A stretch of DNA of 27,260 nucleotides. It comes from a virus. Its lineage: Duplodnaviria > Heunggongvirae > Uroviricota > Caudoviricetes. Below are positions 1 to 26,719 of the stretch, in pieces (position 1 is the first letter of the stretch; each line of letters begins with the position of its first letter). The notes under the pieces were generated by a model that was not told where the DNA came from, searched no databases, and saw only the letters and a program-made list of their open reading frames with translations. The stretch is from the IMG/VR virus record IMGVR_UViG_2541047905_000014; one strand, 5' to 3'. The position numbers and the translations under genes are program-made.

Positions 1-1131
1 TCAAATGACCAGTTTTTTCCACTCCTTACCGCGTACATCGTTGTAAATATCGGTCATTTTTTGATTCGAATGGCCTAGCAAAATTTTGGTATCAACCCCC
101 TGCTCTCTGAACAATCGCTCTGATAAAGATCTCTGCTCATGGAAAGAGGGTGGGGTGCCATTAGCACGCCAGTTGTAATCCACAGAATCCCGGGCTTTTT
201 TAAATGCAACGGTTAATGTTGCTGGCTTAACCATCCCGCCGCGCTTAGCTGTCCCTTTCGCGTGATGGTGGTGCAATAGCCACGGACTAAGAACGCAATC
301 GCGGCAGGATGACACTACATCATCCAGGGTGAGATTTAATTTATCGCAACGCAGAGCCAGAGGGATGGCAATCCGGGTTCCTGTTTTTTGCTGTTCGACA
401 TGAAGATAACCATCCCGGATATCCGAAAATTGCATTTTGCAAATATCTGAAAGGCGCTGGCCTGTCATCAGTGCCAGCAGCATACCGCGCTGTAAAAAGT
501 AACCATTCTTTTCCGCTGCGTTATAAATCATCATCCACTCATCAAAAGTCAGTCGCTGTCTTGATATCCGCACCTGCGGTTTTTTTGCCGATTCTGCAGG
601 GTTAAAGCCTGGCGGGACATCGCCCGTTTGCTGAGCTTCCCGGAAAACATCGATCAGTACTTTCCTGAAAATTTGTCCCATTCTGTTATGTCCTCTGGCC
701 TTGTACTCTTCCAGTACTGATACCACATCTTTTACGGTTATGGCATCTAACGGTCTGGTGCCAAAACGTTCATCAAATACCCTGAGAGGGGCCGCTTTCT
801 GTTTCAGCGTGTTGAGTTTGATCTCGCCGTTTTCATATCTTTCCTGTTGAATTTTTCTGTAATTATTCAGAAAAATGGTAACGGTTGATGAACCGCCGGT
901 ATCACTAATAATTTTCTCCTGCAGACTGAGCATTTGTTCCATTTGCTGCCGGGCAAGACGGCTGTTCGCTTCTGCTGCAATAGTTTCTGCCAGTTTCTGG
1001 TCAATACTGCCGAGACCGTGATTTTTGCCTGTTATGGGATGCCTGTAACGCCAGTAAACTTTGTTATTTCTTTTGTCAAAATACGGAGATAATCCCGGAA
1101 CATCGGTTTTATATTTTCGCGGGCGCGCCAT
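1..1131 (-). CDS. int: Phage integrase, tyrosine recombinase family
   Basis: 376-aa ORF on minus strand at the prophage edge. C-terminal region carries the Arg (TGQRLSDI), His-x-x-Arg (HEQRSL), LGHS and Tyr (TDIYND) motifs typical of tyrosine recombinases. Overlapped at its 5' end by a small Xis-like ORF. Confidence 0.9.
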   Translation of the reverse strand: MARPRKYKTDVPGLSPYFDKRNNKVYWRYRHPITGKNHGLGSIDQKLAETIAAEANSRLARQQMEQMLSLQEKIISDTGGSSTVTIFLNNYRKIQQERYENGEIKLNTLKQKAAPLRVFDERFGTRPLDAITVKDVVSVLEEYKARGHNRMGQIFRKVLIDVFREAQQTGDVPPGFNPAESAKKPQVRISRQRLTFDEWMMIYNAAEKNGYFLQRGMLLALMTGQRLSDICKMQFSDIRDGYLHVEQQKTGTRIAIPLALRCDKLNLTLDDVVSSCRDCVLSPWLLHHHHAKGTAKRGGMVKPATLTVAFKKARDSVDYNWRANGTPPSFHEQRSLSERLFREQGVDTKILLGHSNQKMTDIYNDVRGKEWKKLVI

Positions 1132-4540: not shown

Positions 4541-4598
4541 AAAAAGGGCGGCAGAGCAGTCACGGAGTAAAACTGATACCGCCAAATGTCACCAGAAA
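4541..4598 (-). ncRNA. dicF: DicF small RNA (antisense regulator of ftsZ and other targets)
   Basis: Minus-strand sequence TTTCTGGTGACATTTGGCGGTATCAGTTTTACTCCGTGACTGCTCTGCCGCCCTTTTT matches remembered DicF with one substitution, including the GGCGG...CCGCC terminator stem and U-tail. It lies about 180 nt upstream of dicB, as in Qin. Confidence 0.8.
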
Positions 4599-11790: not shown

Positions 11791-12985
<1,195 letters not shown>

Positions 12986-13955: not shown

Positions 13956-14157
13956 ATACAGCGAACGCCATTGGTTTAGTTGGATATTTACTGTGCCGGA
14001 CAAAAACGGTTTGCGGGGAAATCTTAGTTAAGTAGAATAACTGCGGGTGCTTGAGGCTATCTGTCTCAGGCATGAACACCAAAAGGCAGATAGAGAAAAG
14101 CCCCAGTTAACATTACGCGTCCTGCAAGACGCTTAACATTAATCTGAGGCCATATCT

Positions 14158-14217
14158 ATGCGACACATAGAGATTAGCCTCTTACGGACCGAAAGGTCAA
14201 GGAGAAGCAGGCTATGA
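14158..14217 (+). CDS. mok-like leader ORF, translationally coupled to hok
   Basis: 19-codon ORF whose TGA overlaps the hok ATG (ATGA), as expected for mok/hok coupling. Too short to confirm by sequence alone. Confidence 0.35.
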   Translation: MRHIEISLLRTERSRRSRL

Positions 14218-16242: not shown

Positions 16243-16617
16243 ATGCTCATAGATTTGGTTTTACCTTACCCGCCGACGGTGAACACTTACTGGCGACGCC
16301 GTGGCAGCACATATTTTATCTCGGAGGAGGGAAAGCGTTATCGCCGGGCTGTGGCGCTTATTGTTCGCCAGCAGCGGCTGAAATTAAGCCTGTCCGGAAG
16401 GCTGGCGATAAAGGTGATTGCAGAGCCACCGGATAAGCGTCGTCGCGACCTGGACAATATCCTGAAAGCACCGCTGGATGCGCTGACGCATGCGGGAGTG
16501 TTAATGGACGATGAGCAGTTTGATGAAATCAATATCGTTCGTGGTCAGCCAGTATCTGGTGGACGTCTGGGGGTGAAGATTTACCCCATAATGCATGAAG
16601 AGCAGGTCAAAAAATGA
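16243..16617 (+). CDS. rusA: Holliday junction resolvase RusA
   Basis: 124 aa with RusA-like RRRDLDN, DALTHAGVL and GGRL motifs. GAGGTG RBS. Confidence 0.9.
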   Translation: MLIDLVLPYPPTVNTYWRRRGSTYFISEEGKRYRRAVALIVRQQRLKLSLSGRLAIKVIAEPPDKRRRDLDNILKAPLDALTHAGVLMDDEQFDEINIVRGQPVSGGRLGVKIYPIMHEEQVKK

Positions 16618-17435
16618 AACTGGAAGATTTACCGAAATACTACTCCCCAAAATCCCCTGGCCTGACCGATGCATCGGCCTCAACGTCAAAAGATGCGCTG
16701 AGTATCACTGATGTGATGGCCGCGCAGGGCATGACACAGAATCGGGCTGAGATGGGTTTTTCTGCGTTCCTGGGGAAAATGGGCATCAGTATGAATGACA
16801 GGGTGCGGGCAACAGAATTACTGGCAGATTATGCACTCAGTCGGTGCGATCGTGTGGCGGCGTTGAGAAAACTTCCGGCAGAAATAAAACCGGTAGTGAT
16901 GCGCATTATGGCTTCGTACGCTTTTGAGGATTATGCCCGCAGCGCAGCGAGTAAAAAGCAGTGCCCTTGTTGCTATGGGGAAAAATTTATTGAAAGCATA
17001 GTTTTTACAAACAAGGTCCAGTATCCGGATGGTAAGCCGCCGGTATGGGCAAAGTGTACGAAAGGTGTGTATCCGTCTTACTGGGAAGAATGGAAAAAAG
17101 TCAGGGAGGTGGTAAAAGTTGCCTGTCCGGAGTGTGGCGGAAAGGGTGAGGTTTCCACCGCCTGTAAGGATTGCCGTGGGCGTGGTGTCGCCATTCACCG
17201 TGAAGAGTCGGTAAAACGTGGTATGCCTGTTATCAGAGACTGCCAGCGTTGTGGTGGTCGTGGCTATGAAAGACTACCATCAACGGAGGCATTTAATGCT
17301 ATATGCGAGGTGACAAACCAGATAACACGCGCGTCATGGGAAAAAACAGTTAAGAAATTCTATGATGCGCTGGTGACCCGGTTTGATATTGAAGAAGCAT
17401 GGGCTGAGCGGCAGTTAAAAAAGGTAACTAGGTAA
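16614..17435 (+). CDS. Late-gene antiterminator Q-like protein with CxxC zinc-finger repeats
   Basis: 273 aa, ATGA-coupled to rusA. Contains CPCCYGEK, CPECGGKGEVSTACKDCRGRG and CQRCGGRG motifs. Followed by a promoter-like element and a short-transcript terminator, as expected for Q / PR' / tR'. Confidence 0.75.
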   Translation: MKLEDLPKYYSPKSPGLTDASASTSKDALSITDVMAAQGMTQNRAEMGFSAFLGKMGISMNDRVRATELLADYALSRCDRVAALRKLPAEIKPVVMRIMASYAFEDYARSAASKKQCPCCYGEKFIESIVFTNKVQYPDGKPPVWAKCTKGVYPSYWEEWKKVREVVKVACPECGGKGEVSTACKDCRGRGVAIHREESVKRGMPVIRDCQRCGGRGYERLPSTEAFNAICEVTNQITRASWEKTVKKFYDALVTRFDIEEAWAERQLKKVTR

Positions 17436-17578: not shown

Positions 17579-17654
17579 GGCCCTTTAGCTCAGTGGTGAG
17601 AGCGAGCGACTCATAATCGCCAGGTCGCTGGTTCAAATCCAGCAAGGGCCACCA
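17579..17654 (+). tRNA. ileZ: tRNA with CAU anticodon, ileX/ileZ-like (tRNA-Ile2, lysidine-modified) rather than tRNA-Met
   Basis: Cloverleaf: acceptor GGCCCTT/AAGGGCC, anticodon loop CTCATAA, T-loop GGTTCAAATCC, encoded CCA. Close to E. coli ileX by memory. Confidence 0.85.
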
Positions 17655-17754: not shown

Positions 17755-17828
17755 GCGTTGTTAGCTCAGCCGGACAGAGCAATTGCCTTCTAAGCAATCG
17801 GTCACTGGTTCGAATCCAGTACAGCGCG
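17755..17828 (+). tRNA. argN: tRNA-Arg (UCU anticodon)
   Basis: Acceptor GCGTTGT/ACAGCGC, anticodon stem ATTGC/GCAAT with loop CTTCTAA (anticodon TCT), T-loop GGTTCGAATCC. Confidence 0.85.
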
Positions 17829-18295: not shown

Positions 18296-18688
18296 ATACA
18301 TATCTGGATTATCACTTGTTACGGTAAAAAGTGATTGCTTACTGTTTTTGTGAGTGGCATTGCAGCAGCCGGATAATGTCAGTGCTGGCTGACGGTGTGC
18401 TGGTGGCGGGTGTGGTGGTTGTTGCTTTCCCGTTGCTGAAAAAGAAAACGCCAGACTGTTAGCCGGGTATCAGTTAGCGGGAGAAATTTTTAAATACTTC
18501 ACAATTCAGGCGGTTGACTGTTGTCTGGTTTGCGGGGAGTTTGTTAAAAGAAACTGGCATGGTGAATCCCCCTGTGCGGAGGGGCAATCAGCGAGTAGGT
18601 ATATGGGATAATCGCGGATTCAGGTGCTGGTACTGAATTCACCGGGAGGCACCCGGCACCATGCAATGGCACATAGCGCCACTCTCCA

Positions 18689-18725
18689 GCCCCTCTCCGG
18701 AGGGGCTGTTTATATTGATTTTGTC
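18689..18725 (+). terminator. Intrinsic terminator closing a roughly 400-bp ORF-free, GC-richer segment
   Basis: GCCCCTC-TCCG-GAGGGGC followed by TGTTTATATTGATTTTGTC. Confidence 0.5.
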
Positions 18726-21978: not shown

Positions 21979-22194
21979 ATGTACCAGATGGAAAAAATCA
22001 CAACAGGTGTGTCATACACCACGTCAGCGGTGGGAACGGGCTACTGGTTCCTGCAGTTGCTGGACAGGGTTTCCCCGTCTCAGTGGGCGGCAATAGGCGT
22101 GCTGGGGAGTCTGCTGTTTGGGCTGCTGACGTACCTGACTAACCTGTATTTCAAAATCAAAGAGGACCGGCGTAAGGCGGCGCGGGGAGAGTAA
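21979..22194 (+). CDS. Holin S (71 aa) with dual-start motif
   Basis: MYQMEK... gives Met1 and Met4 starts. Hydrophobic segments and a charged C-terminus ([13 protein letters not shown]). GGAG RBS. It heads the lysis cassette. Confidence 0.85.
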
Positions 22195-23125: not shown

Positions 23126-23659
23126 ATGAACACCAAAATCAAATACGGCCTGTCGGCTGCCGTTCTGGCGCTGATTGCCGCTGGTGCGCCTGCGCCTGAC
23201 ATTCTCGACCAGTTTCTGGATGAAAAGGAAGGCAACCACACCACAGCATACCGTGATGGTGCAGGTATCTGGACCATCTGCCGTGGTGCCATCATGGTGG
23301 ATGGCAAACCTGTCGTTCCGGGCATGAAGTTGTCGAAGGAAAAATGCGACCAGGTTAACGCCATTGAGCGTGATAAAGCGCTGGCGTGGGTGGAGAAAAA
23401 CATCAGAGTGCCGCTGACCGAACCCCAGAAAGCGGGGATCGCGTCATTCTGTCCGTACAACATTGGTCCCGGTAAGTGTTTCCCGTCGACGTTTTACAGA
23501 CGAATTAATGCTGGTGATCGAAAAGGTGCCTGCGAAGCGATTCGCTGGTGGATTAAGGACGGTGGCAGAGACTGCCGTATTCGTTCAAACAACTGTTACG
23601 GTCAGGTATCCCGTCGTGACCAGGAGAGCGCGCTGGCGTGCTGGGGTATCGACAGATAA
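23126..23659 (+). CDS. SAR endolysin R (T4-lysozyme-like, GH24)
   Basis: N-terminal signal-anchor-release segment (LSAAVLALIAAGAPAP) and the catalytic E...D...T spacing (EGNHTTAYRDGAGIWT). Confidence 0.9.
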   Translation: MNTKIKYGLSAAVLALIAAGAPAPDILDQFLDEKEGNHTTAYRDGAGIWTICRGAIMVDGKPVVPGMKLSKEKCDQVNAIERDKALAWVEKNIRVPLTEPQKAGIASFCPYNIGPGKCFPSTFYRRINAGDRKGACEAIRWWIKDGGRDCRIRSNNCYGQVSRRDQESALACWGIDR

Positions 23660-23815
23660 GCAGAATATTTTGCTGAAAAATGAGGAATGGCCACGCGGGC
23701 GGATAACACGAAATCCTGCGAACTGGCGAAACGTAAGTGAATAAAAGTAAAAACCCCGTTTGTTGGCACCAAGCGAGGTTTTGTGTTTCTGACCTTGAGT
23801 AAGGCAAGGGAGAAC

Positions 23816-23998
23816 ATGGCGAAGTGTAAACGAATTCTGTTGAGGTTGACTATGAAAAATGGCCTTGAACTGAAAGCGCCTGTAACTGATGACATCAGCA
23901 GAGCACTGGCTTTTGCCATTAAGTGGGTGGCGGTCGGTGTTGCTGTGTCCCCGATGCTGTATGGGCTGGCAAAACTGGTCATTGCGTTGAAATCGTGA
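23816..23998 (+). CDS. Hypothetical small protein with C-terminal hydrophobic helix (60 aa)
   Basis: GGGAG 3 nt before the ATG at 23816. Lies between endolysin and Rz. Confidence 0.3.
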
Positions 23999-24012
23999 AG
24001 GGAGGATTAAGC

Positions 24013-24144
24013 ATGTCAGACAAACTCATAACGCTGGCGAAGATCCTCTGTGTAATTGTCGGCATTTCATTTTCACTAATGCTGGTTGCTCTTTTTCTTT
24101 CCATGGCCTGGATGATGTTGTCTTCGTCGGGGTTGCTGGGGTGA
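24013..24144 (+). CDS. Small hydrophobic membrane protein (43 aa), translationally coupled to Rz
   Basis: GGGAGG RBS 6 nt before the ATG at 24013. Its stop overlaps the Rz GTG (GTGA). Almost entirely hydrophobic ([26 protein letters not shown]). Confidence 0.4.
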
Positions 24145-24614
24145 ACATAAACCGAATGCTTTCCGCGTTTATCGTTATTCTGCTGGTGGCCTGTGGTGCG
24201 CTGTGGATGGCAACAGACCATTACCGTGATAACGCGATTACCTACAAAGCGCAGCGCGATAACAAAGCCAGTGAACTGAAGCTGGCGAACGCAACCATTA
24301 CTGATATGCAGGTGCGCCAGCGCGATGTTGCTGCGCTCGATGCAAAATACTCGAGGGAATTAGCCGATGCGAGAGCTGAAAATGAAACTCTTCGCGCTGA
24401 CGTTGCCGCTGGTCGTAAGCGCCTGCGGATCAACGCCACCTGTCCAGGCTCCGTGCGTGAAGCCCCCACCACCTCCGGCGTGGATAATGCAACCGGCCCC
24501 CAACTGGCAGACACCGTTACACGGGATTATTTCACCCTCAGAGAGCGGCTGATGACGATGCACAAGCAACTGGAAGGGGCACAGGACTATATCCGCACTC
24601 AGTGCCTGAAATAA
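24141..24614 (+). CDS. i-spanin Rz
   Basis: Strong similarity to lambda Rz by eye ([14 protein letters not shown]...[19 protein letters not shown]). The true start may be the ATG at 24156 rather than the GTG at 24141. Confidence 0.85.
24367..24552 (+). CDS. o-spanin Rz1 (lipoprotein embedded in the +1 frame of Rz)
   Basis: Lipobox LVVSAC and proline-rich [14 protein letters not shown], as in lambda Rz1. Confidence 0.8.
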
Positions 24615-24924
24615 GTTTTGTTGATGCGCCGTATCGTCGCTATATTCCCTCATTAACAGAGACCGCAGCCCGACAGGGAGACTCCTCTGCGCGAGTGTGC
24701 GGGGATAATTAAAAACGATGCACACCGGGTTTTTACCGCGTTAATGATTCGCGGGTTTATCCCGGTGCGATGGTGGAAGAAACAGGAAGCTGTATTACAG
24801 AAAGTGCTACTACTGTATCCCGATGCGATGTATGTAATGTGAGTCAGATAATGGCACAGGATGTGGTGATGTGGCAGTCTGGAACACAGGATATATTGTC
24901 AGAATAAGACCCGTAGGAATAAAA

Positions 24925-25251
24925 ATGAAAAGACGCCTTTTACTACTTTTTCTGTTATCTGTCCTGGCAGTGGGATGCTCGCAGCAAAAAGCTGATGAGC
25001 CCCGGCAATTAGTGACGGTGTATCCACGATATCCGGAATATGCTGCAGCAAATTATATCAAGGGGCTGGTTGAGGTTAAGTTCGATATTGGTGCTGATGG
25101 GACTGTGACACGGATCGTTTTTCTCCGCTCAGAGCCTCATAATTTGTTTCGTGATGAAGTGGTGAAGGCCATGGCGAAATGGCGATTTGAAAAGAATCGC
25201 CCCTGTCAGGGAGTGAAGAGACAATTTATCTTTACGCCGTCACGTCCCTGA
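24925..25251 (+). CDS. Lipoprotein with TonB C-terminal-like domain
   Basis: Signal peptide plus lipobox (LLSVLAVGC). The mature part aligns by eye with E. coli TonB C-terminal domain: PRYPEYAAANYIKGLVEVKFDIGADGTVTRIVFLRSEPHNLFRDEVVKAMAKWRFEKNRP versus [60 protein letters not shown]. AGGAA RBS. Confidence 0.7.
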   Translation: MKRRLLLLFLLSVLAVGCSQQKADEPRQLVTVYPRYPEYAAANYIKGLVEVKFDIGADGTVTRIVFLRSEPHNLFRDEVVKAMAKWRFEKNRPCQGVKRQFIFTPSRP

Positions 25252-25345
25252 TGCTTCCAGGTAGAGAGGGGCTGGACGCAGGAGAAAAATGAAAGAGCCA
25301 GCGGTTATATTTTTGTCATGGCTGACGAGGAATGATGGAAGAAGG

Positions 25346-25395
25346 CGTTGTATGCCACACAACGCCTCACTGTTCATTTCTTCTTTTTCTCTGGT
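25346..25395. terminator. Hairpin plus T-tract terminator, possibly bidirectional
   Basis: GGCGTTGT-ATGCCAC-ACAACGCC followed by TCACTGTTCATTTCTTCTTTTTCTC. Confidence 0.5.
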
Positions 25396-25727
25396 GGAAC
25401 CCGATGAATAAGAGTTGCACTGGTTTCCGATGAGATGGCGATATACTCGGGCAAAGTATGCTGGCAGTTTTCCAACTGGTCAAAAATACCTGCTCTCGTC
25501 TGTTGCAATGCCTGCAGCATGCGGCGGCAATGCGCCTTGCTTTTACTAACCATCTTTCCTTCCTCTATCAGTCGCTGCGTGAACTCATCATGTAATACCA
25601 GGTAAATGCGGATGTTATCGGTTTTGGCTACGCAGCATAGTACAAAACGGACAGGTGCATCCCGGGACGGGGGAGGCGTCACATGTCCCTGTGATGGTTG
25701 TTCCGGGTAATGCACTGTGTGGGGCAT
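25374..25727 (-). CDS. Hypothetical ORF near the cos region (117 aa)
   Basis: Its C-terminal KKKK is encoded by the terminator T-tract. It overlaps a second minus-strand ORF in another frame. Possibly a frameshifted or remnant gene. Confidence 0.3.
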   Translation of the reverse strand: MPHTVHYPEQPSQGHVTPPPSRDAPVRFVLCCVAKTDNIRIYLVLHDEFTQRLIEEGKMVSKSKAHCRRMLQALQQTRAGIFDQLENCQHTLPEYIAISSETSATLIHRVPPEKKKK

Positions 25728-25866
25728 AAAAATGTCCGATAATTTTACTTTCTACCGCAGTTAGTTGATTCGTTGGTCCTGGTAGCACATTGGGCGAGGA
25801 TTTAAATGCCAGGCAACTGAAGGATGATGTTGCAAGGGAGATAGCGAGAATATTTCTGATTTTCAT
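25615..25866 (-). CDS. Hypothetical secreted protein (about 83 aa) with signal peptide
   Basis: Internal ATG at 25866 gives MKIRNILAISLATSSFSCLA signal peptide; GAGG lies upstream. Overlaps the other minus-strand ORF. Confidence 0.3.
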   Translation of the reverse strand: MKIRNILAISLATSSFSCLAFKSSPNVLPGPTNQLTAVESKIIGHFYAPHSALPGTTITGTCDASPVPGCTCPFCTMLRSQNR

Positions 25867-26014
25867 TTGATGATGCCTCTGTGTGAAATGACGGTAAACG
25901 ACGCACTTGTGCCGGCACATAATAGCAAGCACCATAATAGATCAGATTCGATTCTTGCTGTAAGTGATAATCATTCTCGTTTTCGGGTCCTTTCCGTCGA
26001 TCCAACAGGTTACG

Positions 26015-26026
26015 GGGCGGCGACCT
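26015..26026. other. cosN, 12-nt cohesive-end sequence identical to phage lambda
   Basis: GGGCGGCGACCT preceded by GGTTACG and followed by CGCGGGTTTTCGCTATTTATGAAAATTTTCCGG. This matches the lambda genome termini as I remember them for about 45 nt. It lies 184 nt upstream of the terminase small-subunit gene. Confidence 0.8.
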
Positions 26027-26063
26027 CGCGGGTTTTCGCTATTTATGAAAATTTTCCGGGAAC

Positions 26064-26162
26064 CATGTCCGGTTTCTCTTCAAGTTAACTATATGAAAAA
26101 TAAAAAAAGAGGTCTTCTGTGAACCGGACATGCACAAAAAATAGACATGTAAGCCGGACATG
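26064..26162. promoter_or_regulatory. cosB-like region: three CCGGACATG elements (one inverted, two direct) with an intervening A-tract
   Basis: CATGTCCGG at 26064-26072 (inverted), CCGGACATG at 26124-26132 and 26154-26162, with an A-rich tract (GAAAAATAAAAAAAGA) between the inverted and direct copies. Arrangement parallels lambda R3, I1, R2, R1. Confidence 0.5.
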
Positions 26163-26209
26163 ACCGGTTTTGTTGTGATTGTGAAGTGAGAGTTTTTGCG
26201 AGGTGAGGA

Positions 26210-26719
26210 GTGGCTACGCAGACTGAAGTTGCCAGGCATTTAAGTCTGACCGATCGCCAGCTTCGCAGATTGCAGAAATTGCCGGGTGCCCCGATATCGA
26301 ATAAGCGAGGGCAACTGGATCTGGATGCCTGGCGCGATTTTTACATATCGTATCTGAGAAGAAGTAAAAACGATGTGCCTGATGGTGATAGCGAAGACGA
26401 CTATGAGGAGAAATTGCTTATTGCCAGATGGGAACTGACAGCAGAACAGGCTGTTACACAGCAGTTAAAAAATGAGGTGTCAAAAGGAAAACTTATTGAT
26501 ACCGGGTTCTGTATTTTTGCTCTCAGCAAGCTGGCAATGGCGTTATCCAGTACGCTTGATTCCATCCCTTTATCCATGCAGCGACAGTTTCCTGATTTAA
26601 CACCGCGCCATCTTGACCATCTGAAAACCCTTATTGCGAAGGGGGCAAATCAGTGTGCGCGGGCGGGGGATAAATTACCGGATTTACTCGATGAATATAT
26701 CAGAGCAACAACTGAATAA
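26210..26719 (+). CDS. Terminase small subunit (Nu1-like)
   Basis: C-terminal half aligns by eye with lambda Nu1 (DTGFCIFALSKLAMALSSTLDSIPLSMQRQFPDLTPRHLDHLK versus ETAFCTFVLSRIAGEIASILDGLPLSVQRRFPELENRHVDFLK). GTG start directly after an AGGTGAGGAG purine tract. Confidence 0.85.
   Translation: MATQTEVARHLSLTDRQLRRLQKLPGAPISNKRGQLDLDAWRDFYISYLRRSKNDVPDGDSEDDYEEKLLIARWELTAEQAVTQQLKNEVSKGKLIDTGFCIFALSKLAMALSSTLDSIPLSMQRQFPDLTPRHLDHLKTLIAKGANQCARAGDKLPDLLDEYIRATTE

Follow-up and report, generated by a model that had tools for sequence, protein, structure and literature searches.

What does a temperate phage carry a TonB C-terminal domain for, when that domain sits on a small lipoprotein and nothing else of TonB is present? 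The question is raised by one gene in a 27,260-nucleotide stretch of viral DNA (IMG/VR record IMGVR_UViG_2541047905_000014; Duplodnaviria, Heunggongvirae, Uroviricota, Caudoviricetes), referred to here as the window, which is the left 27 kb of a lambdoid prophage. Siderophores, vitamin B12, many colicins and microcins, siderophore-antibiotic conjugates, and phages such as T1 and phi80 all enter the cell through TonB-dependent transporters; a TonB docking domain that is natural, widespread, and fixed to the outer membrane would give the cell a built-in means of modulating this entry. The window gene is almost certainly a real gene under purifying selection, which encodes a lipoprotein with a complete TonB_C domain and belongs to a family of small TonB_C lipoproteins of the Enterobacterales; it is no fragment of tonB. 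An earlier note on this DNA had suggested that the product may mimic TonB or exclude superinfecting phages, and judged from its sequence features this exclusion hypothesis appears reasonable.

Domain structure and predicted localization

The presence of a TonB C-terminal domain in the 108-residue product is confirmed, far beyond chance. The earlier note had aligned the domain by eye and had named a search with Pfam TonB_C (PF03544) as the point on which its idea could fail; this profile matches residues 33-99 significantly (E=7.3e-13; 49.2 bits, cut-off 24.6), and TIGR01352 (tonB_Cterm) matches with 47.4 bits (cut-off 27.1). A phmmer search of the PDB places residues 23-103 without gaps onto residues 150-230 of E. 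coli TonB (1u07, 1xx3, 2gsk_B, and 2grx_C; E about 1e-14), and 32 of 80 positions (40%) are identical to residues 151-230 of TonB of E. coli (P02929; residue numbering checked against K-12 tonB). An AlphaFold2 (AF2) model built on a 17-sequence family alignment has a predicted local distance difference test score (pLDDT) of 87.8 overall and above 96 across residues 30-100, and its layout is a short strand, helix 1, β1, β2, helix 2, and β3. The best Foldseek matches to the model are C-terminal domains of E. coli TonB (1u07; 2gsk_B, root-mean-square deviation [rmsd] 1.0 and template modelling [TM] score 0.92; 2grx_C, rmsd 0.9), including those bound to BtuB and FhuA; the rmsd ranges from 0.9 to 1.5 Å and the TM score is about 0.9.

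Relative to TonB (P02929, about residues 150-239), the YP motif, G186, the aromatic core, and the strand β3 that pairs with the TonB box are conserved. Y36-P37 corresponds to Y163-P164 of TonB, F53 to F180, G59 to G186, F75 to F202, W86 to W213, F88 to Y215, and F103 to F230; β3 (V97-T104) aligns without gaps to TonB 224-231. The mature protein of 91 residues is made up of a 7-residue tether after Cys18 and the complete domain, and it has neither an N-terminal transmembrane anchor nor a proline-rich rod; its best score against an NCBIfam full-length TonB equivalog is 69 bits, where the cut-off is 315. By these tests of anchor, spacer, and equivalog score the window protein is a TonB_C member but not a TonB energy transducer, and with no anchor or rod it cannot couple to ExbB/ExbD.

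The reading frame opens with an ATG preceded by a Shine-Dalgarno sequence, and closes with a TGA at 25249-25251. A GTG start at 24871, which would give 126 residues, was rejected; it would bury the signal peptide and is used neither in the phage 21 annotation nor by PGAP. The N-terminus reads MKRRLLLLFLLSVLAVG followed by C18-S-Q, and contains the basic residues MKRR, a hydrophobic core, and the lipobox L14-A-V-G-C18, which by eye fits the PROSITE PS51257 pattern [LVI][ASTVI][GAS]C. The earlier claim of a lipoprotein thus holds: the basic and hydrophobic signal, the lipobox ending in Cys18, and the serine at +2 establish the product as a predicted lipoprotein. In alignments the lipobox cysteine is invariant in all close alleles and present in most distant relatives. 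Under the Lol sorting rule the residue at +2 decides between the outer membrane and retention, the latter signalled by Asp. The window protein has Ser19 at +2 and Gln at +3 and no Asp retention signal, which predicts its sorting by Lol to the outer membrane; Asp at +2 occurs in none of the alleles and relatives examined.

Family, distribution, and selection

A phmmer search over 1.8 billion representatives returns relatives of 107-133 residues with 31-46% identity, which align from residue 1 and mostly have a lipobox. All 17 family members match TonB_C profiles, and NCBIfam gives domain-level matches only, with no model specific to the family. The family differs from TonB in conserved motifs: ANxIxG where TonB has ALRIEG, SEPxHLFD where it has AKPANMFE, and KWRFE where it has RWRYE. 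Identity to chromosomal proteins of Klebsiella and Raoultella is 45-49% over the full length, whereas the 40% identity to E. coli TonB covers the domain only. Because of this identity and these motifs, the gene is taken to derive from the lipoprotein family, and a recently captured tonB 3' end is rejected as its source.

Family members are found both on chromosomes and in phages. Stand-alone chromosomal members, looked for in part by a locus scan with a 7-sequence alignment, have unrelated neighbors and occur in Klebsiella, Raoultella, Serratia (between ycgN and dsbB), and Erwinia and on metagenomic contigs. When phage lysis and terminase proteins were used as tblastn queries, they had no matches in the Klebsiella, Raoultella, Erwinia, or Serratia loci, and these copies therefore lie outside recognizable prophages. 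Among 50,697 phage records, 15 have the gene, all of them temperate; carriers include phage 21, ev017, Perceval, Stx1a-converting phages, and JLK-2012. A BFVD fold search found no viral protein with this fold at E<0.001. In complete E. coli genomes, 1221 of 5426 (about 22%) carry at least 80% of a 701-nt query.

The phage copies lie 3' of the spanin genes, on the same strand and 5' of terminase, in at least five phage lineages. The E. coli lambdoid carriers have three different packaging modules, including Nu1/A and HNH plus Terminase_2/TerL. In another phage (carrying P0037) the gene stands between a DUF2514 spanin and HNH/Terminase_4; in a further prophage (carrying P0089) it follows holins, a GH19 endolysin, and Rz and precedes DUF1441/GpA; and in Stx1a-converting phages, JLK-2012, and Klebsiella phage ST13-OXA48phi12.4 it occupies the same slot. 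There is very little doubt that temperate phages have repeatedly picked up the gene in this accessory slot between spanins and terminase.

The gene is under purifying selection. Alleles at 85% (P0004), 71% (P0010/P0011), and 67% (P0015) identity keep all 108 residues with the lipobox, and between alleles the pairwise ratio of non-synonymous to synonymous substitution rates (dN/dS) is 0.10-0.20 at a dS of about 1.4-2.

More distant single-domain relatives with a signal peptide but without the lipobox cysteine (P0059, P0085, and P0097) are, as read from their sequences, predicted soluble periplasmic TonB_C proteins, the natural counterparts of laboratory periplasmic TonB fragments. Matches to roughly the first 67 positions of NCBIfam NF038079, the model for the myxochelin TonB-dependent receptor MxcH, are given by 13 of the 17 family members; a TonB_C-like domain is therefore present in cis at the N-terminus of some receptors, and nature thus offers a precedent for holding such a domain at the outer membrane. 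The gene of one family member, P0071 (36% identity; L030 4001-4390), has ParM/StbB partition genes on one side and defense genes of the QatA/QatB type on the other, on a contig that resembles a plasmid, and its upstream region has a borderline Fur-like site (13/19, P=0.04).

Regulation of family members

The 120 nt upstream of each member were compared with the 19-bp Fur consensus, and P was obtained from 1000 dinucleotide shuffles of the member's own upstream region. Each box of 14-17/19 listed in Table 1 has P<=0.02. As controls, the Fur site of E. coli tonB itself scores 12/19 and its ten neighbors 10-11, and 12 of 292 open reading frame (ORF) upstream regions in the same loci reach at least 14, of which about eight are estimated to belong to the family genes themselves. 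The Klebsiella box, TATTGATAATTATTATCAATA, is preceded by a conserved extended -10-like element, TGnTAG(T/A)AT.

Among phage-borne alleles the site is mostly degraded or lost. The allele shared by the window and phage 21 has a deletion of roughly 14 nt at the Fur site, which removes the operator and leaves TGTCAGAAT at the -10-like element; the best Fur match upstream of the window gene is 10/19 (P=0.9) and was rejected. Alleles of the Stx1a-phage type have the palindrome AGAATAAGaCTTATTCT (13/19, P about 0.05-0.08), and the P0089 and Klebsiella phage copies are without a good Fur box. The E. coli alleles also share a CRP-like sequence, TGTAATGTGAGTCAGA, at -92; it is treated as not significant, as 14% of shuffles reach its 8/10.

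We infer that the family was ancestrally iron-regulated with its own promoter and that Fur control tends to be lost on entry into a phage. Given the boxes of the chromosomal relatives, iron starvation probably induces the family along with the TonB system. The link to Fur boxes and the repeated capture by phages are new observations on a family that is uncharacterized and unnamed; a literature search found no publication on this protein or on any phage TonB-domain protein.

Possible function

Judged most likely, though still tentatively, is a mechanism in which the protein, un-energized and tethered to the outer membrane, competes for TonB boxes or for TonB. Lol sorting would leave the domain hanging from the inner leaflet of the outer membrane and facing the periplasm. 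Its exposed β3 edge could then pair by β-augmentation with a TonB-box strand, as TonB does in 2gsk and 2grx; this strand might be that of a TonB-dependent transporter, of a group-B colicin entering the cell, or of a phage protein. Alternatively, the domain could form a heterodimer with TonB's own C-terminal domain. Unable to couple to ExbB/ExbD, it would act as a non-energized competitor or decoy, and TonB-dependent entry of T1/phi80-type phages, colicins, and microcins would be dampened. The window allele would be expressed by read-through of the Q-antiterminated late transcript and from at most a weak constitutive promoter; read-through is probable because the ancestral Fur operator is deleted. 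A speculative variant, which would accommodate the facts both for and against a decoy, has it capture TonB boxes carried by colicins or phage proteins that invade at times when iron starvation de-represses the receptors.

Such a mimic gains plausibility from two precedents. Inhibition of TonB-dependent iron import by a periplasmic fragment of TonB is reported in PMC9841981, which cites Howard et al. 2001, and T5 Llp is an outer-membrane lipoprotein of the inner leaflet that acts on the periplasmic face of FhuA (bioRxiv 10.64898/2026.03.26.714494).

Several observations weigh against a decoy, the first of them concerning its contacts. Q160 and R166, TonB residues genetically tied to TonB-box contact, are replaced in the window protein by Y33 and Y39, and basic residues (K98 and R99) take the outward-facing β3 positions of V225 and V226, which are likewise tied to this contact; the partner may therefore differ from a canonical TonB box. 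Exclusion would need expression in the lysogen, for which the sequence offers a weak extended -10-like candidate promoter; the Fur box of the window allele is lost, and a scan of 24500-26300 for sigma-70 promoters and intrinsic terminators found none on the plus strand between Rz and the gene. Co-induction by Fur with siderophore uptake is hard to square with a general inhibitor. Carriage by about 22% of E. coli genomes, at up to 5 places per genome and with many clinical isolates among the carriers, speaks against iron uptake being blocked at a cost to the host, provided that lysogens express the gene. PADLOC, finally, gives no match for the window protein.

The proposal in its full form is that the window protein represents a natural dominant-negative, outer-membrane-tethered TonB domain, carried in prophages of about a fifth of E. 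coli strains, which would shield the cell from phages, colicins, and microcins that depend on TonB, either by capturing TonB boxes or by trapping TonB at the outer membrane. Its target would be the shared energy-coupling step and no single receptor, and its source a Fur-controlled cellular family that perhaps does the same job under iron starvation. As a whole, this proposal is doubtful. If a decoy it is, it would be a defense aimed at the energy-coupling step and, in Stx1a-phage lysogens and about one in five E. coli strains, could change how susceptible the cells are to 'Trojan horse' antibiotics.

A role of opposite sign is rather unlikely. Here the protein would be a positive or regulatory accessory of TonB-dependent uptake, in which an iron-starvation-induced TonB-like domain docks TonB at the outer membrane or holds or primes transporters and so improves or tunes the acquisition of iron; as phage cargo it would help the lysogen in iron-poor hosts and would be a missing accessory of the Ton system. 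The strong Fur boxes at chromosomal members and at one phage member point to co-regulation with the TonB system, the high prevalence in clinical E. coli fits a beneficial cargo, and the MxcH-type receptors show that a TonB_C domain beside a transporter occurs naturally. Phage 21 also carries, in its b region, a complete sitABCD Fe/Mn ABC transporter (L015, 21967-25416), which makes two cargo loci related to iron; from the one further carrier prophage that was checked (L029), however, sitABCD is absent. Against this role, no mechanism is known by which an un-energized TonB domain would aid transport, the one experimental case on record of a TonB C-terminal domain free in the periplasm is reported as inhibitory (PMC9841981), and most phage-borne alleles, including that of the window, have a degraded or lost Fur box.

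Less probable again is a part in lysis or in envelope integrity. The product would be a late outer-membrane lipoprotein that binds peptidoglycan or an envelope protein and modulates the spanin-dependent lysis step or the envelope. In at least five phage lineages the gene is always directly downstream of the spanins and on their strand, and no terminator is predicted between Rz and the gene; peptidoglycan affinity is on record for TonB's C-terminal domain. However, the junction between lysis genes and terminase is a general slot for morons, of which bor is an example both in lambda and in phage 21; a full Rz/Rz1 pair is already present in the window; and on chromosomes the family is found as stand-alone genes that have Fur boxes and lie away from any lysis genes. 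PHROG 1267, which the window protein matches at 5e-43, is labelled 'Rz-like spanin' and filed under lysis, but this label is almost certainly a transfer by adjacency, because Rz and Rz1 are separately present and the protein is a folded domain. An o-spanin is a short proline-rich lipoprotein encoded in or next to the i-spanin gene, and a u-spanin has a lipobox and a C-terminal transmembrane domain; the window protein has no such transmembrane domain, and spanin identity was rejected. For these TonB_C lipoproteins the label looks wrong, and it will spread into phage annotations.

That the gene is a non-functional captured piece of host tonB is hardly credible and already contradicted by the selection and family evidence: older annotations of the 'TonB fragment' kind and frameshifted or truncated copies in some cryptic prophages (P0032, P0035) suggest it, but the gene has its own signal peptide, lipobox, and ribosome-binding site, a dN/dS of 0.1-0.2 over a dS of about 1.4-2, a closer match to the chromosomal lipoproteins (full-length identity 45-49%) than to TonB of E. 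coli (40% across 80 residues), and the motifs SEPxHLFD and KWRFE, which are common to the family and absent from TonB.

Comparison with known systems

The closest functional analogues of a decoy are laboratory periplasmic TonB fragments, the periplasmic expression of which was reportedly the work of Howard, Herrmann, Stratilo and Braun in 2001. Like the window protein, and as summarized in PMC9841981, they place a TonB C-terminal domain in the periplasm without energy coupling; they differ in being TonB itself, soluble and over-expressed, whereas the window protein is natural, diverged, and predicted to be lipid-anchored. TonB, for its part, has the anchor and rod that the window protein lacks, and the predicted lipid anchor of the latter is in the opposite (outer) membrane. 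HasB, FusB, and TonB2 share the fold of the C-terminal domain, and that of FusB, which also binds a protein substrate (7zc8, 9hi3), is Foldseek match 4; unlike the window protein, all three are energy transducers anchored in the inner membrane and with the full architecture.

T5 Llp and the Cor proteins of phi80, N15, and HK022 resemble the proposed decoy in being small phage proteins that protect the cell via a TonB-dependent transporter. They have no sequence or fold relationship with the window protein, in which TonB_C was the only domain detected. FhuA is the specific target of both Llp and Cor, and the action of Llp on this receptor is allosteric, while a TonB-domain decoy would target the shared energy-coupling step. 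The cor gene is absent from one identical carrier prophage (L029), which has J and Lom; in this sample of one there is therefore no link to FhuA-type phages. Bor of lambda (Bor/Iss) is likewise a small outer-membrane lipoprotein encoded between Rz and cos in lambdoid phages, but it is unrelated to the window protein in sequence, and bor lies on the opposite strand with its own promoter.

Genomic context and earlier annotation

The sequence has long been annotated as 'TonB-like', so that the functional proposal and the family-level picture are the new parts. A protein identical over its whole length (100% of residues) is encoded by phage 21 (OL657228, CPT_21_73, 'TonB C-terminal domain protein'), ev017 ('Partial tonB-like membrane protein encoded within prophage CP-933N'), Perceval ('TonB fragment'), and three ECOR-derived phages, and the RefSeq/PGAP name of the window protein is 'TonB family protein' (WP_000830178).

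The earlier note had located the gene directly after Rz/Rz1, at the position that lambda gives to bor. The first part stands as far as the downstream accessory slot is concerned, since Rz and Rz1 lie upstream on the same strand, but the gene does not follow immediately, a spacer of 310 nt separating it from the end of Rz. The second part does not stand. Phage 21 has the two genes side by side, first bor, which follows Rz directly and is read from the minus strand, and then the TonB_C gene; the latter is therefore no substitute for bor and occupies a neighboring accessory position. The window itself is without bor: tblastn with phage 21 Bor gave nothing below E=1.8, and Pfam found only TonB_C.

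The features of the window, together with the Fur boxes of family members, are collected in Table 1. After the integrase come DicF, the repressor region, a DnaT-type replication gene, an insertion sequence (IS) transposase, hok/sok, and DUF968, and then Q, from which onward all genes are on the plus strand. The prophage may be defective because the transposase has inserted into the early/replication region. A NanS-type esterase gene comes after STnc100 and ahead of the pinholin. The lysis cassette is interrupted, with the DUF1327 ORF and two small hydrophobic ORFs inside it.

Table 1. Features of the window and Fur boxes upstream of family members. Fur scores are matches to the 19-bp consensus; distances are from the start codon.
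Feature	Coordinates	Strand	Basis or remark
Integrase	1-1131	-	
DicF RNA	4546-4597	-	Rfam
DDE transposase (DUF772 + DDE_Tnp_1)	11859-12839	+	Within early/replication region
sok antitoxin RNA (hok/sok module)	14045-14216	+	Rfam
Q	16614-17435	+	
Two tRNA genes 3' of Q	17579-17651, 17755-17828	+	Rfam
STnc100	18528-18717	+	Rfam
S21-like pinholin	about 21979-22194	+	
DUF1327 / PHROG 1085 ORF, 297 aa	22196-23089	+	Between pinholin and SAR endolysin
SAR-type endolysin	23126-23659	+	
Two small hydrophobic ORFs (71 and 73 aa)	23783-24144		Gap from endolysin to Rz
Rz i-spanin, end of lysis cassette	24141-24614	+	Pfam Phage_lysis 2e-47
Rz1 o-spanin embedded in Rz	24367-24552	+	Pfam Rz1 4e-20
Conserved noncoding segment, roughly 170 nt, with nested inverted repeat at about 24722-24768	24625-24790		Alignment, blastn
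Candidate promoter remnant and ribosome-binding site: extended -10-like TGTCAGAAT (24897-24905), AGGA (24915-24918)	24897-24918	+	Alignments, Fur scans
TonB_C lipoprotein coding sequence, 108 aa	24925-25251	+	ORF list, sequence, Pfam/NCBIfam, database annotations
Predicted signal peptide, residues 1-17, and lipobox Cys18 (codon 24976-24978)	24925-24978	+	Read from sequence
TonB C-terminal domain, residues 26-104	25000-25236	+	PDB alignment, AF2, Foldseek
Hairpin GGCGTTGT-7 nt-ACAACGCC, 8-bp, GC-rich, between TonB_C gene and convergent ORF	25344-25366		Read from sequence
Small ORF, about 58 aa, convergent on TonB_C gene	25374-25550	-	PHROG 4843 match
cos, approximate (end of phage 21 right-end homology)	26014-26015		blastn
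Nu1-type small terminase	26210-26719	+	
Fur box, Serratia L024	L024 4925-4943		17/19; -64
Fur box, Klebsiella L017	L017 4973-4991		16/19; -25
Fur box, Raoultella L018/L020/L021, Klebsiella L019, P0040			15/19; -35 to -29
Fur box, P0041			15/19; -36
Fur box, P0117			15/19; -30
Fur box, P0037 (phage-borne)			15/19; -34
Fur box, P0050			14/19; -63
Fur box, Raoultella L022			14/19; -37
Fur-box palindrome, relative L006	322-340		

The noncoding segment downstream of Rz is common to all alleles, to Stx phages, and to lambda (near the right end), and is conserved beyond the gene itself across alleles. Its inverted repeat is followed by a T-run on the minus strand, its fold z-scores are weak (-1.5 on the plus and -2.5 on the minus strand), and Rfam has no family for it. 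The segment is probably a mosaic recombination joint or a leftward terminator, and no part of the protein gene.

From this segment onward the window follows the last 1.39 kb of the phage 21 genome (phage 21 41542-42931 against window 24625-26014, 98.6% by blastn). The homology runs up to cos and therefore puts the TonB_C gene within the late transcription path, at a distance of about 0.8 kb on the upstream side of cos. There is also a dip in GC content to 44%. The hairpin that follows the gene falls below the criteria of the intrinsic terminator scan and is a possible bidirectional terminator. The convergent minus-strand ORF beyond it may be another moron of the accessory region between Rz and cos.

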